A DNA stretch of 64,000 nucleotides from Paludibacteraceae bacterium (GCA_017425065.1 JAFPJV010000024.1:8410-72409); one strand, 5' to 3'. Positions 25,422 through 49,930 are shown, numbered from the stretch's first letter. A program made the numbers and translations. Notes: generated by a model from the letters alone, not told the origin.

Positions 25422-25429
25422 TAATTTTG
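25422..25429 (+). promoter_or_regulatory. -7 box TAATTTTG for the giant surface-protein gene
   Basis: GAAAAAAGCAGTAATTTTGCTGCG matches the consensus architecture seen at 8 or more other loci in the window. Confidence 0.6.
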
Positions 25430-25505
25430 CTGCGATTTTTTGTGTGTATGTGTATTAAAAGCGCATCTACGTACTAAAGGATGGATATTTAAGATACAAA
25501 AAAAT

Positions 25506-28500
25506 ATGAGTAAAAAGATTTTATTCTTGAGTAGTGCAAAACTGACAGCCATGAGTTTTGGTCTGTTGTTGGCTATCTTTTGCACGATTGGTATGTCCTT
25601 TACGCCGGTAGAGGAGGTTGAAGTTATCGAAATCAACGATTCCACTTCGGTATCACCTCAGCGTCAAGTGAGAAAAAGCCACTGGAACGGAGGAGGGTGT
25701 AATGAATCCGATAGTAACAATAATGACTATGCCCGAACGTCTGTTGTTACGATGGGGCACGGAATAGTGTCTATTAAAAATACTACAAAAAACGGTAGCT
25801 TGACATCCATAACCACGAAGACTTCTACAAATGTAGCCGGCAACGAGGCTGTTATCACGTGGAATTGTAATAAAAGTACAAGTGGTCATACTAATAGTTT
25901 TGAATTAACCGCTACTCCGGATGAGGGTTATTACTTCGCAGGATGGAGCACATCGAATACAAGTAACACGGCATCATCAACGGAAAATCCTTGGACCATA
26001 CCTGTGACGATTCCGCATGGCGAGAAAGGGACATCTCAAAATAGCGAATGGGAAAATAGCAACAATCCGTATCCAACGACTTATTATGGTTATTTCGCAC
26101 CAATAACCTATGTAGATGTTACATTTGCTCCTGCACCGGAAGGGTGCTCATATGATATTACGGTTGGTGGTAATACGCAAACAGTAACTACCAGTAATGT
26201 TGTTAAGACGCATATTACAGAAGCAAAACTTTCTAATCCAGTCGCTTCTTCGGGTTATGTTTTTGCTGGTTGGTACCAGATTGATGGCTCGGGCAATGTG
26301 GTGGATATTACATCTGCATCTCCTACTATCAAGTTCTCTGAGAATGTGACTCTTGGAGCACGCTTTATCTCGACAACTTCTCTTCCTAAATTTAAAAATA
26401 TAACCAAGAATGCAGAGTACTATGGTCTTCGTTTGGCAATATTGGCGGCTTCAGCAAATGATGTGATAATCCCGGTGGCAGAAGAGACCGTTGTCGACGG
26501 TTCGGATTTGTTGTCCGCGGATAATGGAATATACACCATCCCTTCCGGTGTTAAACTATTGATACCTTATAGTTCTGCCAACGATTTCCAAACATTGCCG
26601 AAAGTTGTTACATCGACAGGTACTTTGTCAGCGTATAGGAAGTTGATTTTGATGGATGGTGTAAATGTCGTGGTAAGTAGTGGTGCGCAAATATGCATTG
26701 GTGGTCAAGCAATGGCTGCTAGTGGAAGTGCAACTGATGGTGCTACGGGTTATACGACGGGTGCTTGTGGTGTGTTAGATATGAGCCGTGGCGGACATCT
26801 GGAACTGAATAACGGATCCACACTCTACTGTTGGGGATTCGTTAAGGGTCAGGATATGGACCAAGGCAACAATACTATTGGGGTTGGGACGATTACGGTC
26901 AATTCCGGAGCTACCGTTTGGGAGAATTTCTCTGTAGGCGACTGGCGAGGAGGTTCTGCAACCTCCAGTATCGTAAATACTCGATTCTTTCCTTTCCAAA
27001 GTTATTTTATGCAGAACATCGAAGTGCCGACTACCTTTTGGCATGGTTCGTCGGAATGGTGTTATTTTACATTGAACGCAACCGGTGGCCCATACGATAC
27101 CAAATTTGCGGTTATCGGTAGTTCTAATTGTTTGTTCAAACTGACGGATGCTCAGTCAAAGGTGCGGACATGGTATGATCCAACTACTGATTTGATGTGT
27201 TATGAGTTGAGTGGAAGCGCAATATTGGATGAATTAAAGATAAAGATTACAGGTATTCCGTTTATTGGAACTATTGACATTCAATCTTCTCAGTTTGATT
27301 TGCCTATTACGAGCAATATGCATCTGATTTTAGCAGATTGCACTATGAATTTGACAAAACCATTGATAATACAACCGGGGGCGATTATTGAAATCAAGAA
27401 CAATGCTACGGTAACATTAACTAACTCTATCTATCTATATGATAAAGATGATTGGGGGCCTTGGGTTAATGGTAAATACTTTAAATCAAGGGGCAATCTA
27501 ACAACCCATAAAAATCGCGGAAATGGAGCTTCCAATGAATTTCTGGATGATGCTAAATTTATCATAGATGGTTCCTTTACAATCAGTTCAGCGGGTAAAT
27601 TGTTCTCAACAGCAGGAGGCGCTGCTTTGGTTGGTAATGGCGGTGGAACGCTTGCTTATCCGTCCTCTCTTTCAGGTTCTTCTACTTTAACATGGTATAA
27701 GAGCACAACAACAAGTGGTGATGGCGAAACCGGCACTGTAGCTGTAAATAATGCCAATCCTTGCAATGAAGACGAATCATATACCAAGGCTATTGCTTCT
27801 ACAACATTCTATAATGTGCATGGCCGCTGGTTTAAGTCAGGTAATCAAAACGAAAATACCGACCATACCTATAACTTCACTTATATAGCGAGTGGAGCCG
27901 TTAGTGGTACGGGTGGAACAGATGTCTCTCCAAATACCCATAATGCTGTTTATGCTCCGGATAAGACCGGTCTGACAGCCGGTATGAAATGGTGCAACGT
28001 AGCGCAAGATGGGACCTGTAGCAATATCTTTAATGCAACGCAGGCACTCAACGAGACGCCGGCAAGCGATATTCGCTATACCTATCCGTCGAGCAGTTGG
28101 TTGCAGTTGCTCAGGACAGAAACGGAAGGTGTCTATGGTGGTTCGGATAACAGTCTGTATGCAGTAGAAGGATGTGCGGTCAATTCGCTTGGATCGGTAG
28201 ATGAAAACTGCTTGTACACGATTAACGAAGTTAAAAAAGCGCTTGTAGATGGTCATTTCGTGGCTCTTGAGAAGAATACGGAAGACGAGGCATGGCATGA
28301 TGTGGCTAACCCGACTAATTACTATATCAGTTTCGAGGGATGTAACTGGCATCCGGCTACTAAATATGCCGGCGAAGAGAAGGCCTATATAGTAGAAGAA
28401 GGTGACTATATCTGGTATAACAACGACTGGTTGCTGGTGGAGCGTGAAGATCCGTTCTTCTTCGATTACAACGAGCAGAATGTAAAGCGCTACTATGAAT

Positions 28501-31500
28501 ATGAGGATGGCGCATGGGTACTTGCATCTCCGCGTGTCCGCGTAGTGGATGCAATAGAAACGCGTGATTTCTATAAATTGCCTGAGGCTATAACGGTTGC
28601 TTCCGGTAAGAAGAATGCTACTATTACGATTCTCAAAGACATTGCCGGCATCAACACAGAGATGACCTATACGGCAAAGAATACCACTTGTACTCTTGAC
28701 CTCAACGGTCATATAGTTAGCGGTGCATGTGCCAAACTGCTGACCATCAATGCCAGCGGCTCGACATTCACCATTACGGATAATACAATAGAGAAGAACG
28801 GACGTTTGGAGAATATCTATGCGCAAAACGCCGTTACCTATAACGTCACGGTAACTGCCGGTACGCTGAACCTCAATGCCGGTACTATCTATGCACAGAA
28901 TCTGCATCAATATCGCTACAAGAAAGGTGCATCTGATAATGTAGCGAGTATGGGAACTCGTGCAGTGCAGGTTGCGGCAGCACAAAGATTCAATATAACT
29001 GGTGGTCGTGTAGAAGCGAATGGTAAATACGAAGTCTATGGTATTGCTGCTACCGGTTCTGCCGCAAACCAAACGGTTGTAGATATCTCCGGCACTGGAG
29101 AAGTGTATGCAGAAGGTGCATTAAATACGTACGGTATAGCATGTGGCGGTAAACTTAATCTAAAGGCCGGCTTGGTCGAGGCTCATCTTAATTCTTCATG
29201 GGCCAATAGTTACAATACCGAAGGCTCTGACACGGATAAAAAAGCACACGCTACATGTCGTGCAATCACTATGTCTGCAAAAGCAAATGCTACGGCCTCC
29301 AGTTGCTATTATGGCACGTTGACGGTTACCGGTGGTACGATCAAAGCATCAACCGATGCAATATTGGCGCTTAGTTATACCTCAAATGTATATGGTGTAT
29401 ATATGAACATCAACGTGGCGGGTCTTGGTAATAGAAACTTCGCATCTACTTCCGGCACGAATGCACAACAAGCGTCCTCAATCGGTTCTATTAAAAATGC
29501 AGAAATAATCGTGGATAACAAGGCTAACTATGGTTATGGAATAAGTGTGTACGGACATTATAATTCATATAACAATTCGAATAGCGTCTTCAAAGTAGAA
29601 AATACTACGGTGGATGTTAAGGCATATTATTATGCATATGGCATATATGCATGCGGAGATATAGATGGTACAACAGGTGAATGCTACACTGGCGATGTGG
29701 AGTTGACTAATTGTACTGTCACGGCTGAAGCGACCACAGCTGATTATGCTTATGCTACATATGTATATGCAGGACAGAAAACGATTTACAAAGACAAGCA
29801 GGCAAACTATTACGGAGAGTACGCTACGGCAGCAAAAATGACCATCAATAGTGGAACTTATACGGCCAAGACAAAGAAGAGTACAGCATATGCGGTTGCT
29901 ACCAGTACGCGTGCGAAAACGATATACGATCCGGAAACCAGCGTAGAAGCCTCTCGAACATTGGGAGAAGGTAAAGAAGCGTATCCGACGCTTATTATAA
30001 AAGATGGAACATTCACGGCAGAGGCTACAACAACGACTGCACGTGCTGTGTCTTCCGGAGGTAATACAACAATTACCGGTGGAACATTTAAAGCTACTGC
30101 AACCAAATATTACTCATACGGATTATACGCGGTTGCTGGTACATTGACGGCATCAAATATCACGGTGAATGCTACTGCTAAAGGACGAGTAAGTTCTTCT
30201 GATAACAATGCGTACGCATACGGAGTGTTTGCTGATTGTGGAATTATCAGCTCCGGGAACCAAGCATGGACAGGTTATACTTATGCAAGTGACGTAACAT
30301 TAAATAACTGTACGGTCAATGCAACCGCAACAACCTATAACAACGCTCGCGGGCTATGCGTTAATGCAAAAAGCGCTTTGTTAACACAAGCCAATTATGA
30401 AGCACAAAAAACAACGAGTGGTTGGAGTGCTGCAACATGGGCAGCATATCAAGCAGTATTCCCGGGAGATAACACTGGTCGTGCAATCGCAGCCAGAGCA
30501 ACGGTTAATGGGGGTACTTTTACTGCTACAGCAGCCAAAGCTACTGCATATGGTGCACTAAGTACACAGACTGCACTACCTGCCAACAAAGAAGTAACCG
30601 CTTCGCCGGAGATGACGCTCAAAAATGCGACCTTTATTGCTACAACAGGAACAAGTACTACTGCATATGGTGTTCAATGCGGTGGACCGACGCTCATAGA
30701 CGGCTGTACTATTACGGCTACTGCAGGTAACCCAACATTCAAGAGTACGGCTTCCGGAGTTCGTGCTTTAGATAAAACGACCACCATCAAGAACTCGACC
30801 ATTACAGCTACTGCGACAGATGCTGCTTATGGATTGGAGGGATATGTGGAGATCAATGCGACGCACGGTTATTGCTGGCACGGTGAGTTTGATCTCAGCG
30901 AAGCAGGTACTACAGAAGTTACTGCTGAGGCAAAAACAAGTGGTAAGAAGGCATGGAGTGTTTATCTGCAAGCAACCAATAAAAATATTGCAAGTGGTAA
31001 TTTCGCAGGCGATTATGCTACTGCAGCCAATGCTACAATTAATGGCGGTACGTACAAAGCCATAGCAAGCGGCTCTGGCGCAAGTGCCTATTGCCTCTCG
31101 ATTGCAGGAAAAAAGACACAAGGCAGCGTTGTGGCACAACCGGAAGTGGAAGTGCTGGACGGTTTCTTTAATGGTGCTACTGCCGAAGTGGGAACGGCCG
31201 GTGTAGTAGGACATATGCAGCTGAAAGGCGGTTATTTCGTGCACAACACGAATCTTGCCACCTACGCTGTAGCTCCGAAGTCCGTTTGGACATTGCCCAC
31301 TACCCATGAACATTATAACCCGTATTATTACAAGATTGCTGAGCATTACAACATTGTGTTCATGAATGGTACTACGCAGTTGCAACAAAAAGACATGGAA
31401 GTTGGTTCTATTCCGGCATATACAAGCACGCCTACCAAAGATGCAGATGCTCAATATACCTATACCTTCGATGGCTGGTCAACGACAGATGGCGGTGATA

Positions 31501-33707
31501 AACTGGCATCATTGCCTGCGGTTTCTGCTGATGCTACCTATTTTGCACACTATAGTAAAACAGAGAAAAAATACACTGTAAATGTATTAGCTGGAGAACA
31601 CGGCTCGGTTAGTCCGGCATCGGTGAGCGGTATCGGTTGTGTGACGGCATCGGGTAATATTACTGCTACACCTAATACCGGCTACCGGTTTGCCAACTGG
31701 ACATTACCGACCGGTGTAACGGCAGCTGATGGTTATACATCGGAGAGTAATCCGATTCATATCCATGCAACGGCATCAGGCAAGACAATCACTGCTAACT
31801 TTGCCGCCAAGACTTATACGGTTACTTTGGATAACCAATCGGCAACGACTGCCGGTGCGGCAAGTGTAACGGCTACATATAATGAGGCAATGCCGTCTAT
31901 TGCAGCTAATCTGCCCGCAAGAACAGGATATGCGTTCGGCGGTTACTTCACCGAGACCAATGGCGGTGGCACGCAGTACTACAACGCTGATGGTACAAGT
32001 GCCCATATTTGGGATATAGATGCTGTTTCTCCGACTTTGTATGCTAAATGGACCTCTTCGGAAACCGGCTTCTATGTGGATATCGTAGATGTGGATAATT
32101 CAGCAAAGACACTGACGTTGAATACGAATAGCTGGGCATCGTCCGGTTGGGGTGCAACAGGTTATGTTATCAACGGCACTCATTATCTTAAGACGAAGCG
32201 TGAAATAGATCGTACGCTTATCATACCTTATACAGGTGAAGCAGGAGAGAGTTTCACTATTACCATTGAGACTGCAAGCGGTACAACTGTAAGTCTGCAT
32301 AACTACATCATCCCGACGGAGATAAAGAATAATGCTTCTTTGGGAGCACAGCAGGTAGTTTATGTCAAGAATAACGCTACTCTGACCGTAAATGCAAACA
32401 AGACAGTGAAGAACATCTATGTGGCTCCGGGTGCAAAACTGGTAGTGAACAGTGGCGTTACGTTGGAGGCTGATACAGTCTTCCTGCGTACCACGCCTTG
32501 GGAGTCGGCAGAACTGGAACTGAACGGAACCATTACCGGTCAGGTCTGCTACACGCGTATCATCAGCAAGAAAGATCAGTATTACCAGTTCGGTTTGCCT
32601 ATGCCGTGTCCGATAGCGGCAGTCCGTCTGTCTGATGGCAGCACCCCGAAATACGGCGGTGGATGGCTACTTCGTTCGTATAGCGAGCAGCACCGCGCCC
32701 AAAATGGTTCAGGTGCCGATATCGACAACTGGGTAACGCTGACCAATGAGGGTGCAGATGTGACTATACAAGGTGGTGTCGGTTATGAGATGTTCTCCAA
32801 CTCGGGGTACTACCGTGAGTACTACTTCCCTGTAGCCCATACAGACTTGTCCAACTCAGTATCCGTGACGCGTACCGAAGGAGGCAAGGCAGGAGAGAAA
32901 CATGCAGGATGGAACATCGTCGTGTCGCCGTTGATGAGTGCCGCTACCATCGAATCTGTTCCTGAAGGAATGAAGGTAAGCTGGTTGCAAGCAGACGGCT
33001 CGTATTGGCAGCGTTCTGTTACGGAAATCAAGCCGGCTATACCGTTCTCGTACCAGGCTACGGCCAATGGCTCGATATCGTTTGCTCAGTTGATTGCCGC
33101 TCCGGCTCTGCGCCGCGTTGCAGCAACCGAAGAACCGGTACGTATCCAGTGGATGCAGTTGGATATCCTGAATGCAACGGGTCTGTGCGACCAGACCGAA
33201 ATATACAGCCACCCGGCACGCTACGAGCAACGGTACCAGACCGGTATTGATGTAGCAAAGCAGTCGTTCAGCGCTTCGCGCGCGTTGATATATAGTTCGC
33301 ACGTGTATGGGGACATGGCCTTTGCCGGTGTTGCCGACTCGCTCTTGGAGCGCGGCGTAGCCATGACGGTTTATAGCCCGAGTGCGCAGGAGTTGACTAT
33401 CTCGATGCGCGAGAACGACTGGCTCGACCGCATGGCTCAGGTATGGCTCGTGGATCACGAGACGGGTGCACGCACCGACCTGCTGGCTTCGGACTATACC
33501 TTCGACGCTGCGGCAGGTACTACGGCCGGACGGTTCACAATAGAGGGCGTCTTCCGTGCACCGCAAGTAACGACGGATGTGGACAATGGACAATGGACAA
33601 TGGACAATGGACAGGGTACAAAGGCGAAGAAGCTGATCTTGCGCGACAAGATGTATATCCTCGTCGGCGACACATTGTACGACGCTACCGGTAGATTGGT
33701 CAAATAA
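25506..33707 (+). CDS. Giant (2733 aa) secreted surface protein with Listeria-Bacteroides-type repeats flanking a degenerate beta-helix-like repeat region
   Basis: Signal-like N-terminus MSKKILFLSSAKLTAMSFGLLLAIF. Motifs GYYFAGWS, GYVFAGWY, YTFDGWSTTDGG, GYRFANWT and GYAFGGYF occur. About 20 copies of ...T-A-x-A...AYG... units follow. It ends in a short tail, RDKMYILVGDTLYDATGRLVK. The start is moved from 25440 to M23 because of the promoter position. Confidence 0.85.
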   Translation: MSKKILFLSSAKLTAMSFGLLLAIFCTIGMSFTPVEEVEVIEINDSTSVSPQRQVRKSHWNGGGCNESDSNNNDYARTSVVTMGHGIVSIKNTTKNGSLTSITTKTSTNVAGNEAVITWNCNKSTSGHTNSFELTATPDEGYYFAGWSTSNTSNTASSTENPWTIPVTIPHGEKGTSQNSEWENSNNPYPTTYYGYFAPITYVDVTFAPAPEGCSYDITVGGNTQTVTTSNVVKTHITEAKLSNPVASSGYVFAGWYQIDGSGNVVDITSASPTIKFSENVTLGARFISTTSLPKFKNITKNAEYYGLRLAILAASANDVIIPVAEETVVDGSDLLSADNGIYTIPSGVKLLIPYSSANDFQTLPKVVTSTGTLSAYRKLILMDGVNVVVSSGAQICIGGQAMAASGSATDGATGYTTGACGVLDMSRGGHLELNNGSTLYCWGFVKGQDMDQGNNTIGVGTITVNSGATVWENFSVGDWRGGSATSSIVNTRFFPFQSYFMQNIEVPTTFWHGSSEWCYFTLNATGGPYDTKFAVIGSSNCLFKLTDAQSKVRTWYDPTTDLMCYELSGSAILDELKIKITGIPFIGTIDIQSSQFDLPITSNMHLILADCTMNLTKPLIIQPGAIIEIKNNATVTLTNSIYLYDKDDWGPWVNGKYFKSRGNLTTHKNRGNGASNEFLDDAKFIIDGSFTISSAGKLFSTAGGAALVGNGGGTLAYPSSLSGSSTLTWYKSTTTSGDGETGTVAVNNANPCNEDESYTKAIASTTFYNVHGRWFKSGNQNENTDHTYNFTYIASGAVSGTGGTDVSPNTHNAVYAPDKTGLTAGMKWCNVAQDGTCSNIFNATQALNETPASDIRYTYPSSSWLQLLRTETEGVYGGSDNSLYAVEGCAVNSLGSVDENCLYTINEVKKALVDGHFVALEKNTEDEAWHDVANPTNYYISFEGCNWHPATKYAGEEKAYIVEEGDYIWYNNDWLLVEREDPFFFDYNEQNVKRYYEYEDGAWVLASPRVRVVDAIETRDFYKLPEAITVASGKKNATITILKDIAGINTEMTYTAKNTTCTLDLNGHIVSGACAKLLTINASGSTFTITDNTIEKNGRLENIYAQNAVTYNVTVTAGTLNLNAGTIYAQNLHQYRYKKGASDNVASMGTRAVQVAAAQRFNITGGRVEANGKYEVYGIAATGSAANQTVVDISGTGEVYAEGALNTYGIACGGKLNLKAGLVEAHLNSSWANSYNTEGSDTDKKAHATCRAITMSAKANATASSCYYGTLTVTGGTIKASTDAILALSYTSNVYGVYMNINVAGLGNRNFASTSGTNAQQASSIGSIKNAEIIVDNKANYGYGISVYGHYNSYNNSNSVFKVENTTVDVKAYYYAYGIYACGDIDGTTGECYTGDVELTNCTVTAEATTADYAYATYVYAGQKTIYKDKQANYYGEYATAAKMTINSGTYTAKTKKSTAYAVATSTRAKTIYDPETSVEASRTLGEGKEAYPTLIIKDGTFTAEATTTTARAVSSGGNTTITGGTFKATATKYYSYGLYAVAGTLTASNITVNATAKGRVSSSDNNAYAYGVFADCGIISSGNQAWTGYTYASDVTLNNCTVNATATTYNNARGLCVNAKSALLTQANYEAQKTTSGWSAATWAAYQAVFPGDNTGRAIAARATVNGGTFTATAAKATAYGALSTQTALPANKEVTASPEMTLKNATFIATTGTSTTAYGVQCGGPTLIDGCTITATAGNPTFKSTASGVRALDKTTTIKNSTITATATDAAYGLEGYVEINATHGYCWHGEFDLSEAGTTEVTAEAKTSGKKAWSVYLQATNKNIASGNFAGDYATAANATINGGTYKAIASGSGASAYCLSIAGKKTQGSVVAQPEVEVLDGFFNGATAEVGTAGVVGHMQLKGGYFVHNTNLATYAVAPKSVWTLPTTHEHYNPYYYKIAEHYNIVFMNGTTQLQQKDMEVGSIPAYTSTPTKDADAQYTYTFDGWSTTDGGDKLASLPAVSADATYFAHYSKTEKKYTVNVLAGEHGSVSPASVSGIGCVTASGNITATPNTGYRFANWTLPTGVTAADGYTSESNPIHIHATASGKTITANFAAKTYTVTLDNQSATTAGAASVTATYNEAMPSIAANLPARTGYAFGGYFTETNGGGTQYYNADGTSAHIWDIDAVSPTLYAKWTSSETGFYVDIVDVDNSAKTLTLNTNSWASSGWGATGYVINGTHYLKTKREIDRTLIIPYTGEAGESFTITIETASGTTVSLHNYIIPTEIKNNASLGAQQVVYVKNNATLTVNANKTVKNIYVAPGAKLVVNSGVTLEADTVFLRTTPWESAELELNGTITGQVCYTRIISKKDQYYQFGLPMPCPIAAVRLSDGSTPKYGGGWLLRSYSEQHRAQNGSGADIDNWVTLTNEGADVTIQGGVGYEMFSNSGYYREYYFPVAHTDLSNSVSVTRTEGGKAGEKHAGWNIVVSPLMSAATIESVPEGMKVSWLQADGSYWQRSVTEIKPAIPFSYQATANGSISFAQLIAAPALRRVAATEEPVRIQWMQLDILNATGLCDQTEIYSHPARYEQRYQTGIDVAKQSFSASRALIYSSHVYGDMAFAGVADSLLERGVAMTVYSPSAQELTISMRENDWLDRMAQVWLVDHETGARTDLLASDYTFDAAAGTTAGRFTIEGVFRAPQVTTDVDNGQWTMDNGQGTKAKKLILRDKMYILVGDTLYDATGRLVK
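33581..33615 (+). repeat. In-frame heptamer array GGACAAT x4 (+GGACAGG) near the 3' end of the giant gene
   Basis: ggacaat x4 then ggacagg. It encodes DNGQWTMDNGQG, 30 codons before the stop. Confidence 0.9.
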
Positions 33708-33708
33708 C

Positions 33709-33742
33709 TGATAATTGAATACTGAATACTGAAACTGAATAT
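33709..33742. repeat. Heptamer array TGAATAC-like x5 immediately after the giant gene stop
   Basis: tgataat tgaatac tgaatac tgaaac tgaatat. Confidence 0.8.
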
Positions 33743-33792
33743 TAGTCTGTTATACATATACCTGTGAAGGTAGATTATATTAAGGTACAAAA

Positions 33793-34700: not shown

Positions 34701-34708
34701 TAATTTTG
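34701..34708 (+). promoter_or_regulatory. -7 box TAATTTTG; overlaps the 15-nt palindrome TTTTGCGGCGCAAAA (34704-34718)
   Basis: Preceded by TTGCATATG. It lies 30 nt upstream of the ATG at 34738. Confidence 0.55.
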
Positions 34709-37374: not shown

Positions 37375-37382
37375 CAAAGGTA
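37375..37382 (-). promoter_or_regulatory. -7 box TACCTTTG for cobB
   Basis: Reverse complement of caaaggta, about 22 nt upstream of the 37353 start. Confidence 0.5.
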
Positions 37383-37507: not shown

Positions 37508-37515
37508 TATCTTTG
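37508..37515 (+). promoter_or_regulatory. -7 box TATCTTTG for the 37584-49930 gene string
   Basis: AAAAAAAAGCAGTATCTTTGCGCC. It lies about 70 nt upstream of the GTG at 37584. Confidence 0.55.
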
Positions 37516-40798: not shown

Positions 40799-40841
40799 GT
40801 ATAACTCATTATATAATAATAAATAAGTGCGATTAACGATA

Positions 40842-42434
40842 ATGCGAAAAAAACTATACATATTAATGCTTCTGGTAGCCGTCTGCTGCTATACGCAGGC
40901 GCAAACTGACGAGCATTGCGAAGGCTGGTTTGAGGGACTGCCCAACCACTATTGTATTTGTCATGCCACGTCTCAGGAGTTCCATTTCCCGCTGGAGATG
41001 GAGATAAACGATACGCTGTGGTTTGTCACGACAATAAATGACTTGAAGCAGGGTCTCTCCGCCTATTGGTTTGCCGATTGCACCGTCACTTTTGAAATCT
41101 ATGCTTTCTGCAGTTCGGAGATCCCGACGATCAAGATGACTGTCGGTTCAAACCAGATGCGCGAGATGGATATAGCGGAAATCAACCGCCGGTTGGAAGA
41201 GATGGGAAATATGTCCGGCGTGTTAGATGTGCTTCGCCCGCGTGCAAAAGTATATCCCAATGGTGGTGGTACGGGACATGTATATTGCTATCCGTATGAC
41301 CAGGGACCTGCCTCCACCTGCGATGACCTGCTGCCGGTTATTCCGCGTATGACTTATGTCTGCGACAAGCCGAGCGAGGTATATGAACTGAAGCCGGAAA
41401 AGATTCCGTCTTCCGGTCAGGGATTTATCCGCTGGAAGCAGCAGAAAAACCTGGAGGGTACGATTCGCCTGACAGAGGGTGCATGCGACGGACCGGAGAT
41501 AGCCCGGGCTACGCTTACCGACTCAACACGCGTGATGTTGATGGATCCCATTAAGATGAAAGCGCTGAAACAGGCAGGTACGAGTGTGTTTGTTCATGTG
41601 GATCATCCTGCTGATTATGTGGGGCGTATCTTCTTCCATAACCGGATCATTTGGAGCGAACAACGTATTGATACAACGCTCTGTCAGGGGAAGCAGTTGC
41701 AACTGGCAGACACGACGCTCAGAGAAACGACTGTCTATCCGAACGATACGCTGTGGACTCGCGGTGACACGCTCTCGCTTACGACTTATCATCTGACGAT
41801 AGAGCCTCCTGAGTTGCAGTATGACACCCTGTTACTGAAGGCCGGGCAGTTGCCGATGACGTATCGAAACCAATATATAGCAAAGGACGCATGGGGAAAC
41901 CATGATTTCACGATTCGTGAGCCGAACAAGTGCGATGAACGTGTCCTGGTCAATGTGATACATGATGTCGTGCGCAAAGAAACAGAAGTGTTCGATACGC
42001 TCTGTCAGGGCAAGACAATCACTTATAGTGGTGTTGAATATGCCGTAGATACCGTCATCCGCGACTCGGCATGGGCGGATGCGGATACATGGGTGGTAAG
42101 CGATATCTCTATCCACTTTACCGAACCGGAATTGGAATATGATACCGTCCAGGTTCCGCCCAGCAAGATGACAGTGACCGGATATTGGTATTCCACACTC
42201 GGAGTGGCGCTGTTCGGATATGGCGATACGCTGATTGTCAAAACGCGTAAGAACCAGTGTACCCGCAAGGTGCAGGTAACAGTAGTTGTAGCAGATGAAC
42301 CGCCGATCACATCCGTCGAGTCCATACCTTATAATGATGCGGGTGCGCGCAAGTACGTGCGCGATGGCATCATCTATATCCGGCGCGAGGGACGTGATTA
42401 CGACCTGACGGGCAGACCCATAGATGGCAAATAA
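40842..42434 (+). CDS. Secreted 530-aa protein with a short RDG-YI...YD-TGR C-terminal tail (hypothetical)
   Basis: Signal peptide MRKKLYILMLLVAVCCYTQA. Contains degenerate TLCQGK...LTI repeats. The tail is KYVRDGIIYIRREGRDYDLTGRPIDGK. ATG 40842 is preferred over GTG 40827. Confidence 0.7.
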   Translation: MRKKLYILMLLVAVCCYTQAQTDEHCEGWFEGLPNHYCICHATSQEFHFPLEMEINDTLWFVTTINDLKQGLSAYWFADCTVTFEIYAFCSSEIPTIKMTVGSNQMREMDIAEINRRLEEMGNMSGVLDVLRPRAKVYPNGGGTGHVYCYPYDQGPASTCDDLLPVIPRMTYVCDKPSEVYELKPEKIPSSGQGFIRWKQQKNLEGTIRLTEGACDGPEIARATLTDSTRVMLMDPIKMKALKQAGTSVFVHVDHPADYVGRIFFHNRIIWSEQRIDTTLCQGKQLQLADTTLRETTVYPNDTLWTRGDTLSLTTYHLTIEPPELQYDTLLLKAGQLPMTYRNQYIAKDAWGNHDFTIREPNKCDERVLVNVIHDVVRKETEVFDTLCQGKTITYSGVEYAVDTVIRDSAWADADTWVVSDISIHFTEPELEYDTVQVPPSKMTVTGYWYSTLGVALFGYGDTLIVKTRKNQCTRKVQVTVVVADEPPITSVESIPYNDAGARKYVRDGIIYIRREGRDYDLTGRPIDGK

Positions 42435-42546
42435 TAACTAAATAACCAAAATATTAACTTAAAAAAGGAAAAAAACAAAAAAACAAAAAATTAAAACTAA
42501 AAAACTTTTATTAATTAACTTTATTTATTAACTTAATTCAAACTCT

Positions 42547-45500
42547 ATGAAGAAATTTCTAACATTGGTTGTCGCGTTGATGATGGTCATCCCTATGATG
42601 GCTATCGGAGACAACGACGGCTCAACCCAATTGGATGCAATTGACTTCAATTGGGATGCTCCGACGAAGCACTCCGGTGGAATGAAATGGTACGTAGTGG
42701 ACCTGTCTCCTCTCTATGAAGAGGAAACACCGGGACTAAGTCTGTTTCTTGCCAACGAGTCTAAGACCAATTCGGTGCATGTGAGTGTGAAAGCGACTGT
42801 TGGAGAAACAACAGAGACGAAGTCCTATGTTTTGGGCCCAACGTCGCAAGAATCATGGTCCAGAAATGCCAGCTCGCTGGTGCGTTTGAAAACCAAGAGG
42901 ATTTTCCTGAGCCTGAATTCGGATGGTCCGGTGGTTTTGAGCGCCAAGGTCTTCGAATTCCAGGATCTGGACGATGCTTGTAAGAAAGCTACCGCATTCA
43001 GTTGGACAGCAGGTCTTAACAAACCTGCCGGTGCTAAGCAATGGTACAGCTTGGACCTGACCGAGGCAAAGGCAACTTCGGACAAGGATGTACGTGTGTC
43101 CATTAAGAACAATGGTTCTCAAAAGGCTACCGTCATCGCTACGCAATCGCTGGACTGCCCCTCGACAAGTGTAAGCAGTCGTACGATTGAAATTGAACCG
43201 GGCGAAACAGTTGCTGATACCATCGGACATGGTATTATCAAGTACGTCAGCTTCAATGACCTCTATTTCAGCCTTGAGAATGATCAGCCGATCACGGTGA
43301 AGGCCGAGTTTGTAAATCAATCTTCGACGGTTGTACTTCCGCCGGATGATCCGAGTGACCCGAATAATCCGTACGAGGATCTTCATGTGCAAGAAACGAA
43401 GGATCTTTCGGCCGGTCAGACCTACTACTTCCGTATTAGCGTTGATGAGATGAACCAGTACAAGAAGTTAGAGCCGGAATTCGTATTCCTCAACAATGGC
43501 GCCACCGTAGCTACCGTATTCAGCAGCATGGCTTTCGAATCCGGTGTTAACAGCGCTATGAACGACAATCTGCTCCTGCAAGGAAACGATGAGTTGATAG
43601 AGGTTATCAACAAAGGTTTCCTGATGGGTATTGACGCTGAGTACGTTTACCTCCGACTCCAACCCGATCAGGATGTACAGCTCACATCACGTTTCAAACA
43701 CGTACGTGAAGGAAAGGCTTGTAAGACAAACATTGACTTCGACTGGGATCACGGTCATCGTCAAGCTGCCAAGACTGTTCAGTGGTATCATCTCAGTATG
43801 GCAGATGCTATCGCTAACAAGGAAGACATTATCGGTCATGTTATCAACGAAGGTAGCAAGAAGGCTAACGTGAAGATTTCCGTAGCATTCGATTGCCCCT
43901 ATACCGATTTGACCGACGTGTCTCGTTCTATTCCTGTTGGCCAGGTAGTTGATCATACGTTCGCTTATTCGACGTTCGCTATGATGACTGAAGACGTCTG
44001 GGTACGTCTCGAAACAGACCAGCAAGTTAAATTCTGGGCAGAGACGAAACCTGCTAAGCAAAATCCGACTCCGGATGAGGCTTGCTTGAACGCTATTGAT
44101 TTCGATTGGCAGGCTGGTATCTCCCAGCTTGCAGGTGAGACCAAGTGGTACAAGGTGGATATGACGCAAGTTCGCAACATTACGGAATTCCCGACCGTTT
44201 ATGTATTCAACCGTGGTAACGGTAAGGCTACAGTTGTCGGTGAACTCTCCGAGGATTGTCCGGATGTTTTTGTAAACGACAAACCGAAAACACTGTCGAT
44301 TGCAAAGGACGGTTTCTATTCCAAGCGTATCTCTCGTGATATGTTCAATCATATCAAGGCTGATGTCGTATATTTGCGCGTAACGACGGATCAGGATATT
44401 GATGTCCAGGTTCGCTTTACCGAGGAGCCTGAAGGTAGCTCTTGCAGTTCCGCGAAGGAATTCAACTGGAACGCAGAGGGCAAGGGACATATAGAGCAGG
44501 CCGCTAATGCCAATCTCTGGTATCTGATTGACCTCTCGAGAGCTATTGATGAGGAAAAAGACGTAAGGGTAACGATCATCAACAAGTCGGGCCAGAAGTG
44601 CAGCGGTACTGCATGGTTGGCATACGATTGTGAGAGCGATGAAATGCCTGAAAATCAACCGTTCCACCTCGATGCAAATGCAAGCAAGTCGCGCGTTATC
44701 GAGAACAGTCTGATTACGGATATGGTAACGGACAAGAAGGTGTATATCCGTCTGATGGGCAACACGACTCTCCGCGTAGAGGCTGAGTTGGTTGATCCGG
44801 CTCCGTTTACGCCGATTCCGTGCCCCGCATCGGTGGTTGAACTCGATTGGAATACACTCTATACCCATCCGGGTGGTGAGGTTTGGTACCATGTCGATGA
44901 TGCTGACCTCGAGATTCTGCGCCAAAACGACCTCGCTCCCGAGGCATACGCCAAGGACCTGAGTGGTGCAAGCAACATGATTACCGTAGAGGAAGCTTTC
45001 GCTTGCCCGATTCTGAAGAAGATGGCGGGTAAAAGCAAGTCACTGGCTGCCGGCGCGGAATATCGTCGTCAGATAGGTCGTTCTACTACCGACCAGTTCA
45101 TTAAGCATAATGAAATTTATCTGCGTGTTACCAGCCAAGGTGCATTCGAGTTCAAGGCTACGCTCAAGAACCCGTACAACGGTAGCGACTGTATGTCGGC
45201 TATCCGCGTAGGTATGGAGAATAACCTGACTCAGGCTGCCAACACGGTTGTTTGGTATCGTGTCAACATCGGCAAACTGAAAGAGGATGATTCGCTGCAT
45301 GGCAAGAGCCTGAAAGTGACTGCCAAGAACAAAGGCGGAAAGGCTAATGTCAAAGTAGCTATCTTCGAAGACTGCGCTGGCGAGGATATCCTCGAGGACC
45401 GCGGTAAACATTCGGTTTCTGCAGGCAAGTCCTACAGCCGTTCGATTCCGGCATACGTAATCTACGGATTGGCTTCGAAAGAACTCTATGTACGCGTTGA

Positions 45501-48500
45501 GACTGACCAGGAGATGACATTGACATCCAGCCTGGAGAACTATGCTACATTGGCAGAGTCGAAGAACTTGAAGGATATTGCTAAATTGGCAACGCCGAAT
45601 ATTGACTATACCGTTAAGGCAAATGAGGAAAACTGGTTTGCTATCTGCTTGCCGATGATCCGCAACAACTACACACTGACAGATAATCTCTATGTAACTG
45701 TCAGCAACCCGAATCCGGTTGATGTTAAGGTAACAGGTACTGCTACATGGCAGGATGTGCTGACCTACAAGATTCCGGAGCGCACTCGTACGATTAAGGC
45801 GAACCGTTCGTATCACAAATCGTTCAGAGAGATTGCAAGAAAGGGTCTTGAGCGTGCAAATATTGACGGATTCTCGATCGACGATTTCGAGACCGAATTT
45901 ATCGACAGCATGCTTCGCGTTTATATCACCGAGGACTCGCTCACCGCGTATGTAATGATCAAACCGGAGAGAGATCTGAAGTGGCGTATTGATGCCGACA
46001 AGGCTAACGGCTCGAAATGTGACGATGCTATCAGCTTTGACTGGGAGCATGGTAATGCACATCCGGCAAACAGCACACTTTGGTATCATGCCGAACTGAG
46101 TCCGGAGCGCATCCCCGAAGACAAAGACCTGCGTATCCATGTTGTAAACTGGTCAGAACGTGTGGCAAATACGACGGGAGATATGTACTTCGACTGCAAC
46201 GAGGCTGCTACTGTAAGCACACCTTACACCCTGAATCCTCTGCAGGATAAATACAAAGATATCGACCGTGACTTGATGGAGCAACTCGGTTGGGCTCCGC
46301 TGCTGATTGAGTACTTCTCTGATGAGGATACCTATATCTGGGCAGAGCTTGTTCCGAACGTTCCGCGTGACACGCTGCGCGATACAGTAGTTGCGTATGT
46401 ATGTTATGGCGAACCGTATCAGGATACTATTATTGCCGAGCACTCGATTCCGTCTGTAGAGCAATTTGTAACTTGGAACGATACCATTACTTTCCAGGAC
46501 GGTGTATTGCTGAAAGACTCGATCACCAAATTTGAGATTCATCCGATTGTTGAGCCGGTATTGCTCACCATTGACGAGATGAAGGCTCAGGGCGCAGCTC
46601 CGCTGCTCGTTCAGGGTATGCAGTTGTATGTTGATCCGTCGAATGCAGCTCTGTTGGCTTACTATCGTAACCTGAGTGCACAGTACGATTCGATTATGAA
46701 TATCGATACTGTTTACTGGGCAAAACCGGTTTACAAGGGCGATGGTACGTTGAATGACAAGAAGGATGAACCGCTGGATCTGCTTACGTTCTATCAGAAG
46801 ACTGACCTGCAGGATACCCTTCTGCTCGTCATCAAGGATACTACGGTCTGCGACAACGCTATTCGCCGTGAGTTCGTATTTGCGCTCGACGCATACAAGA
46901 CTGTTGCATTTACGGATACACTTTGTCCGTCACCGACAGTTCCCGGCAATGAGACAAAGACTGTCCTCGTTGCGGATACTCTTGGCCGTGATCGTTACGT
47001 AGATAGCGTTTATACGCATGTGGCTCTTGTTGAACCGACACTTATTGAAGATGCCGAACTGCAAGACAATGAGAAACCGCAGGTTGTAAGCGGTGTTATT
47101 GATGAGACATCGTCCGCAATCAGCAGCAACGTAATCAAGCAGATGATTGAGGACAAATCCGCTCCTGGAACGATGGATGTAACAGCTCTGACCTGGGAAG
47201 TAGATAATGGTACTGCATGGCAGGCTCTGCCATATACAGTTCCTGCAAATGCTACCACAGTGACGATGCGTTATATCATCACCACCGAGTGCGGTACGCA
47301 GAAGACAAGCAACAACTTCGTTATCAATGTTCCTGCTCCGACTTACAAGAACGATACGATTATGCTCCGTGATACGACAGTCTGCGAAGTATTTGTATGG
47401 GAGACCACCAACCATGGTGACGGTCAAACCTACACCGCTTCCGGAACGTTGTATTTCAAGAGCAATGAGCCGATCGACGCTGATCCGACTTCTACTACCT
47501 ACTTCAAGGTTTATGGTTTGAATCTGACCGTTAACCATAATGTAGAGAACATTATCAACGAACTTCCGGCATGTGGCTCTTATACATGGAATCAGGCAGG
47601 CGTGGATACAGTGATTACGACCAGCAGTCCTGCTGAGGGTTACAAGCACGTATTCCCGAAGGCAGCAGCAAGCGGTTGCGACTCGATTGTAACCTTGCAT
47701 ATTACGATCAACAATCCTGTTGAAGTAGTAGTAAACGAGACTCCGGTATGTGATTCCTACACATGGAAGATGGATACCAAGGATAGTGTGATTACGACCA
47801 GCAGTCCTGCTGAGGGTTACAAGCACGTATTCAAGGGTGCTGCAACGAATGGTTGCGACTCGATTGTAACCTTGCATATTGTTGTTAACAACAGCGTTGC
47901 TGTTACAGCAGCTCCTGTTACCGAGTGTAACTCGTACACATGGAAGTTTGATGCGAACAACGATACGTTGATTACGACCAGCAGCACTGGAGCAGGTTAT
48001 ACCCATAAGTTCCAGACCGTTAACGGTTGCGACTCGGTTGTAACACTTCCTGTTACCATCAAGGTTCCGTATCAGTCTTCGCTGTCTCTGGTATCTTACT
48101 ATGGCGACCGTCTCCTCATGATCAACCGTAACGAGATTAATGCTATCGACGGTTGGAATCTGGATTCGCTCGACGTAGAGGATGGCCAGTACGTAACTTG
48201 GTATGAGATTGACAAGAGCGGCAATGAGACGAAGGTAGGTAACGGTTATACATATAACCTGCCGAACGGAGATCAACTGCCGACAGGCTACACGTATTAC
48301 GCTGTAATTTCGTTGCCTGCTGTATCTGGCGCTTGCGGTGCCGAGGGTACTACTGTCAAATACACGATTCCTGCACACTCAGGCGCTCCGATGCTTGCTC
48401 CGAACTTAGCTCGTCCGGGAGAGCAGATGCGCGTACTGAACCTGAATCCGGATCAGACCACTTACATCCGTGTTTACACGGCTGAAGGTCACCTGATCAG

Positions 48501-48621
48501 CCAGTATGAGGTAAGCAACCAGGCTACCTACTACATGCCGGCACAGAAGGAGAGCGGCTTCTATCTCGTAGAGGTGGAGAGTGCTGATGTTAAGTCAACA
48601 TTACGTTACATTGTAAAGTAA
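42547..48621 (+). CDS. Giant (2024 aa) secreted protein: ten ~115-aa modules, three GCDS repeats and a T9SS C-terminal sorting domain
   Basis: Signal peptide. Modules fit C-x3-[AI]-x-F-x-W...WY-x-[VL]-D...DC...V[YW][LV]R[LV]. The CTD is IRVYTAEGHLIS...GFYLVEV...LRYIVK. Confidence 0.85.
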   Translation: MKKFLTLVVALMMVIPMMAIGDNDGSTQLDAIDFNWDAPTKHSGGMKWYVVDLSPLYEEETPGLSLFLANESKTNSVHVSVKATVGETTETKSYVLGPTSQESWSRNASSLVRLKTKRIFLSLNSDGPVVLSAKVFEFQDLDDACKKATAFSWTAGLNKPAGAKQWYSLDLTEAKATSDKDVRVSIKNNGSQKATVIATQSLDCPSTSVSSRTIEIEPGETVADTIGHGIIKYVSFNDLYFSLENDQPITVKAEFVNQSSTVVLPPDDPSDPNNPYEDLHVQETKDLSAGQTYYFRISVDEMNQYKKLEPEFVFLNNGATVATVFSSMAFESGVNSAMNDNLLLQGNDELIEVINKGFLMGIDAEYVYLRLQPDQDVQLTSRFKHVREGKACKTNIDFDWDHGHRQAAKTVQWYHLSMADAIANKEDIIGHVINEGSKKANVKISVAFDCPYTDLTDVSRSIPVGQVVDHTFAYSTFAMMTEDVWVRLETDQQVKFWAETKPAKQNPTPDEACLNAIDFDWQAGISQLAGETKWYKVDMTQVRNITEFPTVYVFNRGNGKATVVGELSEDCPDVFVNDKPKTLSIAKDGFYSKRISRDMFNHIKADVVYLRVTTDQDIDVQVRFTEEPEGSSCSSAKEFNWNAEGKGHIEQAANANLWYLIDLSRAIDEEKDVRVTIINKSGQKCSGTAWLAYDCESDEMPENQPFHLDANASKSRVIENSLITDMVTDKKVYIRLMGNTTLRVEAELVDPAPFTPIPCPASVVELDWNTLYTHPGGEVWYHVDDADLEILRQNDLAPEAYAKDLSGASNMITVEEAFACPILKKMAGKSKSLAAGAEYRRQIGRSTTDQFIKHNEIYLRVTSQGAFEFKATLKNPYNGSDCMSAIRVGMENNLTQAANTVVWYRVNIGKLKEDDSLHGKSLKVTAKNKGGKANVKVAIFEDCAGEDILEDRGKHSVSAGKSYSRSIPAYVIYGLASKELYVRVETDQEMTLTSSLENYATLAESKNLKDIAKLATPNIDYTVKANEENWFAICLPMIRNNYTLTDNLYVTVSNPNPVDVKVTGTATWQDVLTYKIPERTRTIKANRSYHKSFREIARKGLERANIDGFSIDDFETEFIDSMLRVYITEDSLTAYVMIKPERDLKWRIDADKANGSKCDDAISFDWEHGNAHPANSTLWYHAELSPERIPEDKDLRIHVVNWSERVANTTGDMYFDCNEAATVSTPYTLNPLQDKYKDIDRDLMEQLGWAPLLIEYFSDEDTYIWAELVPNVPRDTLRDTVVAYVCYGEPYQDTIIAEHSIPSVEQFVTWNDTITFQDGVLLKDSITKFEIHPIVEPVLLTIDEMKAQGAAPLLVQGMQLYVDPSNAALLAYYRNLSAQYDSIMNIDTVYWAKPVYKGDGTLNDKKDEPLDLLTFYQKTDLQDTLLLVIKDTTVCDNAIRREFVFALDAYKTVAFTDTLCPSPTVPGNETKTVLVADTLGRDRYVDSVYTHVALVEPTLIEDAELQDNEKPQVVSGVIDETSSAISSNVIKQMIEDKSAPGTMDVTALTWEVDNGTAWQALPYTVPANATTVTMRYIITTECGTQKTSNNFVINVPAPTYKNDTIMLRDTTVCEVFVWETTNHGDGQTYTASGTLYFKSNEPIDADPTSTTYFKVYGLNLTVNHNVENIINELPACGSYTWNQAGVDTVITTSSPAEGYKHVFPKAAASGCDSIVTLHITINNPVEVVVNETPVCDSYTWKMDTKDSVITTSSPAEGYKHVFKGAATNGCDSIVTLHIVVNNSVAVTAAPVTECNSYTWKFDANNDTLITTSSTGAGYTHKFQTVNGCDSVVTLPVTIKVPYQSSLSLVSYYGDRLLMINRNEINAIDGWNLDSLDVEDGQYVTWYEIDKSGNETKVGNGYTYNLPNGDQLPTGYTYYAVISLPAVSGACGAEGTTVKYTIPAHSGAPMLAPNLARPGEQMRVLNLNPDQTTYIRVYTAEGHLISQYEVSNQATYYMPAQKESGFYLVEVESADVKSTLRYIVK

Positions 48622-48634
48622 GGAGGACCATAAG

Positions 48635-49930
48635 ATGAAAAATATTAAATCAATGCTATTCATTGCAATGCTGATGGCTGTTGGAGTTAGCTCCGCATCG
48701 GCCCAGCAGATTGAGTTCTCTGTAGAGAAGGGCGATACAGTGCTTATCGACCCCGAGTGCGAAAGATACCTCACCGGCGAGAGAATGTCGAAGTGGGTAT
48801 ATGGTTACAAGCATGTAGTTTACCAGTTGGGAACCAAGAAATTCCCGACAGGTGTGCTCCTGTACAATGGTGCTAAAATCGGTATTCTCTCTTGGGTTGC
48901 TCCTGAGTGTCTGAATGTTCAGACTCGTATCAAGGAGGACAATCCGCAGACTACGGATAAAGATACCGCTACTGCAGTAACGCCAAAGGATTCTATCCCT
49001 TCTACAGTAGGAACTGATAAACCGGACAAAGATTCCATTGATGCAAAACAGAAGGATGATACCGACAAACCGCAAGAGAAGAAGAAATCCGGATACGACC
49101 GATTCACGATCGGCGTACGCGGTGGTGCTTCTTCGTTGCTCCATTCGTCCATCCAGGGTAACTGGAACTGCGGTTTTGACGCTATTCTCGACCTTCAGTA
49201 TGCTCACTATTGGACAAAAGAAGATCGTCCGATTGACCTTGGTATCATAGCCGGTTTGGGTCTGGGTTATTCCCAGAGTGCCCTTAAGGTGGATTATGAC
49301 AGTACGAAAGTAACCGCAGCTACTACCTCTACTACAGGAGCAGCAAGCAATGTGGACTATACTGTTGTAGCCAAAGATGTGAAAGAGACGGATCGTACAC
49401 TTCAACTCGAGGTGCCGGTAATGTTCTCGTTGATTCATGACAACGGCCTGTTCTTCAACGTAGGTCCGAAGTTCATGATTCCGCTTTACAGCCCGTACAA
49501 ACAGACTGTAAGCAAAGAGGGTTCACATATTTCGGCTTACTTCCCCACGGAAGGTGTTACTACTCAAGATAACATCGTAACCGGTAAGTATGACGGACAA
49601 GAGCCTGTAGCTGACAACGGTATTCAGTTTAATATCAATATTATGCTGACTGCTGAAATCGGTTACGAGTGGATTCTGAAATCCGGCAACTCACTCGGTC
49701 TGGGTGCGTATGCAAACTATTGCGTTTACAACTCGTTCAAGAACCGTACCGACTCGAAGAGCCTCTTCAAGCTGACTGAGGCTTCCGAGGCAAGTATCGC
49801 TCAACTGGATGTGTTGTCTGCTACCAATACGTATGCAAACAAACTCGGATACTTCGATGTAGGTCTCAAGCTTGCTTACCACTTCAACTTTCCCAAGAAA
49901 GCTAAGAAAGCAGCTGCCGTTGAGGAGTAA
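48635..49930 (+). CDS. Tripartite outer-membrane protein: N-domain, K/D/T-rich linker and C-terminal beta-barrel
   Basis: Signal peptide. The linker is DKPDKDSIDAKQKDDTDKPQEKKKSG. The barrel runs from FTIGVRGGASSLL to LKLAYHFNF. AAGGAGG lies 8 nt upstream of the ATG. Confidence 0.65.
   Translation: MKNIKSMLFIAMLMAVGVSSASAQQIEFSVEKGDTVLIDPECERYLTGERMSKWVYGYKHVVYQLGTKKFPTGVLLYNGAKIGILSWVAPECLNVQTRIKEDNPQTTDKDTATAVTPKDSIPSTVGTDKPDKDSIDAKQKDDTDKPQEKKKSGYDRFTIGVRGGASSLLHSSIQGNWNCGFDAILDLQYAHYWTKEDRPIDLGIIAGLGLGYSQSALKVDYDSTKVTAATTSTTGAASNVDYTVVAKDVKETDRTLQLEVPVMFSLIHDNGLFFNVGPKFMIPLYSPYKQTVSKEGSHISAYFPTEGVTTQDNIVTGKYDGQEPVADNGIQFNINIMLTAEIGYEWILKSGNSLGLGAYANYCVYNSFKNRTDSKSLFKLTEASEASIAQLDVLSATNTYANKLGYFDVGLKLAYHFNFPKKAKKAAAVEE

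Follow-up and report, generated by a model that had tools for sequence, protein, structure and literature searches.

A conserved Bacteroidales locus of giant secreted proteins, predicted outer-membrane barrels and interchangeable C-termini

What is built by a 24.5-kb locus of mostly hypothetical genes, lying near a secretion gene in an uncultured Paludibacteraceae bacterium? The locus occupies positions 25,422 to 49,930 of a 64,000-nucleotide (nt) stretch (GCA_017425065.1 JAFPJV010000024.1:8410-72409), the whole of which is referred to here as the window, and contains eight plus-strand open reading frames (ORFs), A to H, in which genes for large secreted proteins are followed by genes for predicted outer membrane (OM) beta-barrels. 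An interpretation made from the sequence alone (hereafter, the original prediction) described it as a self-contained cell-surface apparatus of uncharacterised type, such as an adhesin or a surface layer. Our analysis supports this in part; an uncharacterised apparatus with cargo-barrel pairs, conserved and coherent, is borne out, and its self-contained nature is not. On balance, the locus probably encodes a non-enzymatic surface assembly of adhesin or fibril type that depends on a type IX secretion system (T9SS), in an uncultured rumen/gut lineage of the Bacteroidales.

The observations behind the original prediction were largely right, with corrections on three points: the continuity of the gene run, the taxon, and a weak link between C and G that is taken up below. 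All eight ORFs are present, and the starts of A and F agree with NCBI protein lengths. A minus-strand Sir2 gene (36658-37353) separates C from D, so the ORFs are not consecutive as had been thought. The source is an uncultured 'Paludibacteraceae bacterium' metagenome-assembled genome (MAG) and not a member of the Prevotellaceae, the host group first proposed. In the NCBI MAG the locus corresponds to MBQ2540293.1-MBQ2540301.1 (tags II551_01440-01480), where the Prokaryotic Genome Annotation Pipeline (PGAP) names A an 'InlB B-repeat-containing protein'; apart from a D variant described below, the others are hypothetical. The eight genes are as follows, with lengths in amino acids (aa).

25506-33707, plus strand: A, 2733-aa secreted giant (PF09479 44.9 bits, PF18998 41.5 bits)
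33793-34617, plus strand: B, 274 aa, with an N-terminal transmembrane (TM) helix, a Gly/Ser-rich region and an acidic Trp-rich segment, read from the translation
34738-36654, plus strand: C, 638-aa secreted protein with a weak type-A-like C-terminal domain (CTD) (TIGR04183 14.6 bits, below cutoff)
37584-39929, plus strand: D, secreted, 781 aa, carrying nine Cys modules of ~55 aa each and a type-A-like CTD (jackhmmer, blastp, TIGR04183)
39929-40798, plus strand: E, 289 aa, predicted to be a small OM beta-barrel, its start codon overlapping the stop of D (PF13505 21.3 bits, sub-threshold)
40842-42434, plus strand: F, 530-aa secreted all-beta protein (AlphaFold model, mean predicted local distance difference test (pLDDT) 85.8)
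42547-48621, plus strand: G, 2024-aa T9SS type A cargo (jackhmmer repeats; TIGR04183)
48635-49930, plus strand: H, 431-aa predicted OM protein (model, Foldseek, homologues)

The C-terminus of G connects the locus to the T9SS. TIGR04183 (Por_Secre_tail, cutoff 23 bits) identifies a T9SS type A CTD at aa 1946-2024 (nt 48382-48618), with 25.2 bits for the full protein and 29.5 bits for its last 120 aa, and 26 of 27 G orthologues match as well. Similar tails had been ascribed to C and D; these score 14.6 and 16.1 bits, both below the cutoff, and a near-identical 765-aa variant of D is named 'T9SS type A sorting domain-containing protein' by PGAP. The D domain lies at aa 712-781 (nt 39717-39926). 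TIGR04183 had no match in window A or F, and matched one of 29 C-termini of the F family, that of related locus L058, which carries a real CTD. The type B CTD model (TIGR04131) had no match in the eight proteins at E-value <= 0.1 and none in the C-termini of the F and C families at E-value <= 1. As G carries a bona fide type A CTD and the locus contains no translocon, the apparatus is expected to depend on the general T9SS and is not self-contained.

The pairing of cargo genes with barrel genes is the second line of evidence. The original prediction held that a cargo gene is followed by its own barrel gene in D-E and G-H, and this proved stronger than was known at the time, with E and H belonging to one family whose distant members also stand directly behind cargo genes. 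The gap between G and H is at most 29 nt in all but one related locus, and typically 14-17 nt. For eight of eight sampled distant barrel relatives, the barrel gene lies 0-19 nt downstream of a cargo gene, and the proteins encoded by those eight cargo genes end in the same 'YYAxxDV...C...' pre-CTD module, followed by a type A CTD in seven cases and a short tail in one. E is confined to loci in which the long CTD of D is retained (the window, L069, L084 and L107); in loci lacking E, the D protein terminates with a short tail.

E and H are clearly homologous. A word-indexed homologue search with E recovered E itself and a single 28% relative, and E did not match an H profile that included the H N-terminal domain (N-domain). 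Against the barrel-only relatives of H, the alignment reached an hhalign probability of 98.3% (E-value 2.4e-14) over 268 columns, and by this comparison E and H are therefore taken to be paralogues of one ~290-aa barrel family. A hidden Markov model (HMM) scan of 1.84 billion representative proteins yielded 468 clusters, many of which are barrel-only proteins of ~290 aa. H has more than 1000 close homologues and is far more conserved than its neighbours, with a mean column identity of 71%. In its structural model, a small N-terminal beta domain (nt 48731-48925) is joined by a disordered Ala/Glu/Lys/Pro linker to a C-terminal barrel of 8-10 strands with long loops (nt 49094-49894), for which the best Foldseek matches are OpcA, NspA, OmpX, OmpW and OmpA-TM. 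Matches to OMP_b-brl (PF13505) and OMP_b-brl_2 (PF13568) are all below the gathering thresholds of 28.7 and 27 bits, respectively (E, 21.3 bits; an extra barrel in L085, 25.6 bits; P0349, 26.8 and 26.3 bits), and a profile of the E/H family matched no PDB chain. A Slam-like translocator was also considered for H and rejected, as the SlipAM match was insignificant (12.7 bits, E-value 0.089) and the barrel looks too small.

The two barrels differ in their cysteines. The periplasmic C-tail of E ends in a twin-Cys SCVLCEY (nt 40766-40795), its orthologues end in ...KTCVCLDY or ...KTCVCLNY, and each of the four copies of E that were examined, those of the window, L069, L084 and L107, has the twin-Cys tail. 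A C-x-C tail end is also found in 7/51 barrel-only relatives, e.g. ...CHCLYD, ...CHCIKM and ...CRCLKQ. As a separate observation, the Ca. Colicola equi locus (L085:1123-2004) encodes a second, barrel-only H paralogue (PF13568 25.6 bits, sub-threshold) directly upstream of a C that bears the short tail.

This short C-terminal tail had been noted in A and F, and it is conserved in the orthologues of both.

33627-33704, plus strand: short C-terminal tail of A, KKLILRDKMYILVGDTLYDATGRLVK (shared pattern)
42348-42431, plus strand: short C-terminal tail of F, …KYVRDGIIYIRREGRDYDLTGRPIDGK (tail HMM 40-43 bits)

The tail spans 25 residues with the motif K-x-[IL]-x-[ND]-G-x-[LIV]-x-I-x(4-6)-Y-[ND]-x-[LF]-G-[QRK]-x-[IV], and all A orthologues end in a variant, 'ARKvlInqKmyI.inG.lYDAtGK.V'. 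An HMM derived from F tails left window A unscored, so the place of A in the tail class rests on the shared pattern. In the related loci this HMM matched F in 59 of 63 cases and D in 32 of 37, seven of 22 C-labelled ORFs (six long C-D fusion ORFs and L085), both Flg_new ORFs, one G of 71, and none of 451 other ORFs. Six loci (L033, L037, L055 and L064-L066) have ORFs of 845-1004 aa in which C and D are seemingly fused and which end in the short tail.

Among orthologues of F, D, C and G, one and the same position is taken by the tail in some proteins and by a type-A-like CTD in others. The F orthologue of a Paludibacter sp. (L058) has a TIGR04183 CTD instead of the tail; D has a CTD in the window and a tail in most other loci; the C of Ca. 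Colicola (L085) has the tail; and the G of L076 ends in the tail and not in a CTD. This interchange argues that the tail would be functionally equivalent to the CTD, i.e., a sorting or anchoring signal, and not purely a docking peptide. A truncated type A CTD, an idea drawn from the 'iYd..G..v' motif of such domains, was rejected as the origin of the tail, the hhalign comparison with the G CTD giving P 0.13. In the F orthologues of L077 and L079 the tail seems permuted or extended (…RYNLLGQKVSESYRGVVIENGRLVWRE), with a 'YN.LGQ' element preceding the 'ENG.L' element.

Conservation of gene order indicates that these genes belong together. An H relative is encoded in 136 species-level genomes, all of them uncultured rumen/gut Bacteroidales labelled Paludibacteraceae or Bacteroidales. 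In tblastn searches of 86 H-anchored loci with the window proteins, relatives were detected of G (83 loci), D (69), F (64), tsaB (62) and porW (61); C was detected in 42, a count held down by the 10-kb flank. Where present, the genes are ordered (B)-C-D-F-G-H-tsaB-porW-miaB, and (B)-C-D-F-G-H is contiguous in most of the 86. In C-anchored metagenome loci A and B are syntenic too (sulfatase-A-B-C-D-(E)-F-G-H-tsaB in, e.g., L092, L093, L125, L129, L131 and L107), some 25 metagenome loci have an A orthologue upstream of B-C, and sulfatase-A-B-C-D-(E)-F-G-H-tsaB-porW is the order in dozens of rumen and gut genomes. The expectation that the locus genes are co-conserved thus held up, A-B-C-D-(E)-F-G-H recurring in many species-level genomes and metagenome contigs, and the comparative evidence supports a functionally linked unit. 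A minimal version in L173:6949-15631 (GCA_024399965.1) consists of a 1010-aa cargo with a type A CTD and a 291-aa barrel, with two tail-bearing genes 1-3 kb downstream, behind a gapdh gene.

The genes directly downstream of H in the window are tsaB and porW.

49930-50631, plus strand: tsaB, a housekeeping neighbour whose start overlaps the H stop (TIGR03725, 143 bits)
50647-53202, plus strand: porW/sprE, a T9SS lipoprotein neighbour (NF052312, 569 bits vs cutoff 250)

The PorW/SprE identity proposed for the latter is confirmed by this score, and its distance from H is 717 nt instead of the 760 nt first given. Presence of porW means that the organism has a T9SS, the remaining genes of which are located outside the window. 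Among distant relatives (H 35-43% identity) F-G-H is kept and tsaB and porW are absent downstream; the adjacency of porW is therefore the synteny of one sub-lineage and not a functional requirement.

The composition of the cargo and accessory proteins agrees with a non-enzymatic role. Pfam and NCBIfam searches, run on all eight proteins, returned no match for B, F or H and no catalytic family in any of the eight, and no enzyme fold was found in the F model, in accordance with the original reading that catalytic motifs are absent. Searches of PDB sequences with H, E, G and A gave nothing significant. A contains Listeria-Bacteroides repeats above threshold, namely Flg_new (PF09479) repeats at aa 221-285 (nt 26166-26360) and Flg_new_2 (PF18998) repeats at aa 2023-2102 (nt 31572-31811). 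G contains ten tandem ~120-aa modules (aa 21-1277, nt 42607-46377), delimited by profile analysis. C orthologues are syntenic, with 40-60% identity. F has 244 homologues, none annotated, and its AlphaFold model (38 homologues, pLDDT 85.8) is wholly beta and comprises a pair of jelly-roll sandwiches at the N-terminus, four small modules (nt 41649-42296), a disordered linker and the C-terminal tail as three short strands. Foldseek matched this model only to lectin- or CUB-like sandwiches (SID1 ectodomain, botulinum HA70 D3, and the CUB domains of PCPE-1 and neuropilin) and to no enzyme fold.

Shared repeat modules had been proposed for two groups of these proteins. The D/F/G group stands, a jackhmmer profile placing the ~55-aa Cys module in nine copies in D (aa 141-605, nt 38004-39398), three to four in G (aa 1610-1845, nt 47374-48081) and at least one in F (aa 277-329); all-against-all blastp of the locus proteins gave D vs G as the only match (E-value 6.6e-18). 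The C/G group is the weak link mentioned above. The N-terminus of C (aa 29-89) aligns to the G module over 59 columns with hhalign P 3.4e-4 and a probability of 38%, and an HMM of the G module matches G orthologues only, not C.

B and its orthologues, which sit between A and C, all end (~34530-34614) in P-(L/V/I)-G-D-x-P-W followed by a TM helix and basic residues. This tripartite C-terminus resembles exosortase-type C-terminal sorting or anchor signals.

Taken as a whole, these observations are consistent with the following mechanism. Hydrophobic N-terminal leaders of the Sec signal type can be read from the translations, and Sec would export all locus proteins to the periplasm. G, as a giant with ten tandem beta-sandwich modules, would then cross the OM by the general T9SS via its type A CTD, and D, and probably C, would take the same route in this strain. 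H after G, and E after D, may act as dedicated carriers or anchors for the cargo encoded upstream of them, analogous to PorP/SprF with type B cargo or to PorQ with PorZ. The pairs PorZ-PorQ and PorU-PorV offer a precedent for proteins with type-A-like CTDs that a partner barrel retains at the surface and that are not cleaved and linked to anionic lipopolysaccharide (A-LPS). PorQ is a PorP-family barrel and PorV a FadL-like 14-strand barrel, and both belong to the core machinery and are not cargo-specific partners of giant adhesins. E would probably be tethered to the PorK ring by a disulfide through its periplasmic twin-Cys tail. The 25-residue beta-hairpin tail of A and F, and of D, C and G orthologues elsewhere, most likely serves as a compact alternative signal for sorting or anchoring, whose reader may be the same machinery or the H barrel, and A, C and F would be accessory all-beta proteins with alternative C-terminal signals.

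Several points weigh against this picture. The host organism is uncultured, and we infer the secretion route, the carrier function, the disulfide tethering and the adhesive role. To our knowledge, there is no direct precedent for a dedicated barrel serving type A cargo like G, because such cargo normally uses PorV and is anchored to A-LPS. C has a CTD-like end and no barrel of its own. No known T9SS signal model recognises the short tail. As was first suspected, E and H lack the PorP/SprF signature; neither they, nor their orthologues, nor ten distant barrel relatives gave a Pfam or NCBIfam match to PorP/SprF (PF11751; E-value <= 0.1-1), and E and H did not match PorG or any solved structure by sequence. 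The H model has a low overall pLDDT of 54.6, with barrel strands at 80-90. The C-tail of H has no cysteine, and a twin Cys occurs in the tail of none of the 76 N-domain forms. The W-x-C-x-x-C of the H N-domain occurs in 57 of 79 relatives, is missing in 21 and is reduced to a single Cys in window H, and the motif is thus not treated as essential; the absence from 21 relatives also ruled it out as a universal PorK-tethering motif.

The same evidence raises a bolder and more tentative idea, that the tail and the H/E barrels might together make up an undescribed, third class of signal and carrier for the T9SS. The tail would be a mini signal replacing the type A CTD, H and E would be cargo-specific shuttles or anchors that read the pre-CTD module together with the CTD or the tail, and some members would be coupled by disulfides to the PorK ring via twin cysteines. 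We regard this extension as possible and somewhat doubtful.

Other explanations must account for the same features. A cellulosome-like arrangement would have G as a T9SS-anchored scaffold whose ten modules would each use beta-strand addition to bind the tail of A, D, F or C, the tail being a docking peptide and not a secretion signal. The ten similar ~120-aa modules of G fit such a scaffold, as do the confinement of the tail to this locus type among the sampled ORFs (0/451 others) and its appearance in the F model as a separate beta-hairpin on a flexible linker. However, the G of L076 itself ends in a tail, with no type A CTD left in any protein of that locus, and in L171 a tail-bearing G-like protein is followed by a barrel. 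The exchange of tail and CTD at one position in four families argues for equivalent function, tail-bearing proteins would still need a route across the OM, and no cohesin or dockerin Pfam match was found in any of the eight proteins; docking onto G is unlikely. The barrel genes could also owe their positions to operon history, with H and E as generic OmpA/OmpX-type structural OM proteins, the H N-domain binding peptidoglycan or the envelope, and the large proteins as independent, fast-evolving T9SS antigens without physical coupling to them. Sub-threshold PF13505 and PF13568 matches, Foldseek matches to OmpX, OmpW and OmpA, the conservation of H far beyond that of its neighbours (71% mean column identity) and the overlap of the H stop with the tsaB start would all be expected on that account. 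Against it, the barrel-after-cargo order survives deep divergence and changed genomic surroundings (8/8, spacers 0-19 nt), E comes and goes with the CTD of D, and the cargo proteins have modules and tails in common, which makes a generic role quite unlikely.

A motile function was considered as well, in which D-E, and perhaps G-H, would be mobile adhesins of the gliding type like SprB-SprF, coupled by disulfides to the PorK/GldK track and moved along the surface. E and 7/51 barrel-only relatives have a C-x-C or C-x-x-C periplasmic tail of the kind that couples SprF to GldK, and the gene for the barrel immediately follows that for a giant repetitive cargo, like sprF after sprB (PMC12618676). 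On the other side, there is no PorP/SprF match and no type B CTD (TIGR04131) match, gliding-specific genes were not seen in the window, and H is without tail cysteines. A tail cysteine is likewise present in PorG of P. gingivalis, which does not glide, and motility can therefore not be read from the motif. We consider gliding very unlikely, and a T9SS-dependent adhesin- or fibril-type assembly remains the reading that we prefer.

Gene junctions and promoter boxes were as originally predicted. The TGATG overlap at 39927-39931 (D/E), the 13-nt spacer between G and H and the TAATG overlap at 49928-49932 (H/tsaB) are all present. TAnnTTTG boxes start at exactly 25422, 34701 and 37508 and are the sole intergenic plus-strand matches within the locus.

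25422-25429, plus strand: Bacteroidetes-type -7 box TAATTTTG upstream of A (exact, intergenic TAnnTTTG match; putative function)
34701-34708, plus strand: -7 box TAATTTTG upstream of C (TAnnTTTG match)
37508-37515, plus strand: -7 box TATCTTTG upstream of D (TAnnTTTG match)
36658-37353, minus strand: Sir2-family deacylase gene (PF02146, E-value 2.3e-41)

A scan for sigma-70 promoters and terminators gave the same counts as shuffled sequence, and only the Bacteroidetes -7 motif was informative. The box upstream of D is the likely start of a D-E-F-G-H(-tsaB) transcript, an operon structure we infer, with tight junctions downstream. The spacer between F and G (42435-42546) is a 112-nt A-rich tract (…AAAAAAGGAAAAAAACAAAAAAACAAAAAATTAAAAC…) without a TAnnTTTG box, and could hold an internal regulatory element. 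The Sir2/CobB-family gene, which does not belong to the system, has its own -7 box at 37375-37382 on the minus strand and does not occur between C and D in any other related locus; L163 instead has a sir2 gene ~3 kb upstream of C.

The locus is flanked on its 5' side by lgt and a sulfatase-family gene and on its 3' side by tsaB, porW/sprE and miaB. Further upstream, the GC skew changes sign at ~22 kb (window ~20000-24000), which is also the minimum of the cumulative skew. This switch coincides with a change from minus-strand genes (gyrA at 18126-20771, cinA, aspartate kinase) to plus-strand genes, and may mark a replication origin or a mere change of gene orientation. G+C content is 0.42-0.45 over window positions 22000-30000 (which cover lgt and the sulfatase-family gene as well as the 5' half of A) vs ~0.51 mostly elsewhere in the window.

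No description of this system was found in the literature on RF16 and rumen T9SS or on type A cargo with dedicated barrels, and the barrel family, its linkage to type A CTD cargo and the CTD-replacing mini-tail appear undescribed in the literature searched. The lineage is a group of Bacteroidales abundant in the rumen and hindgut, of which practically no member has been cultured or characterised; in it the locus amounts to ~24 kb of conserved 'hypothetical' genes. If the proposed roles are correct, the principle of T9SS cargo with a dedicated shuttle would no longer be confined to type B CTD and PorP/SprF and would include type A cargo and a new family of barrels, the tethering by twin cysteines reported in 2025 would gain independent comparative support, and a very short C-terminal signal would be defined. 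Such roles would also point to a major surface structure in rumen ecology, probably for attachment to feed particles or host surfaces.

Among known systems, type B cargo with PorP/SprF (SprB-SprF, PG1035-PorP) is similar in that the barrel gene immediately follows a large repetitive cargo gene and the cargo has a C-terminal sorting domain (PMC9143113, PMC12618676). SprF, which is PorP-like and carries SprB, and PorG, a barrel of eight strands, form disulfides to GldK/PorK via Cys-X-Cys in their periplasmic C-tails (Liu et al. 2025, PMC12635249); the spacing and number of the tail cysteines differ between species, P. gingivalis PorG having a single Cys (PMC12635249). The periplasmic twin-Cys C-tail of E resembles that of SprF (PMC12635249). 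In contrast to these pairs, the cargo CTD here is of type A (TIGR04183) and not type B (TIGR04131), E and H have no PF11751 match and form a separate ~290-aa barrel family, probably of 8-10 strands, and H possesses a periplasmic domain at its N-terminus and lacks tail cysteines. PorG, like the predicted barrels of E and 7/51 relatives, is a small OM barrel with one or more cysteines in a short periplasmic C-tail. Unlike them, it is a core T9SS component that is not encoded behind a cargo gene; moreover, the E/H profile matches no PDB chain and the E and H sequences have no NCBIfam match. The cohesin-dockerin scaffoldins of rumen Firmicutes likewise combine, in a rumen organism, a giant tandem beta-sandwich protein with several proteins that carry a short conserved C-terminal tail. 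They have no sequence or family similarity to the proteins described here, whose tail-bearers are non-enzymatic and whose tail can replace the scaffold's own CTD. Finally, the OMP_b-brl and OMP_b-brl_2 families (PF13505, PF13568) are comparable in size and strand pattern and show weak HMM similarity (18-27 bits); all of these matches are sub-threshold, and the E/H family is distinguished from both by its long extracellular loops and its fixed cargo-linked gene position.

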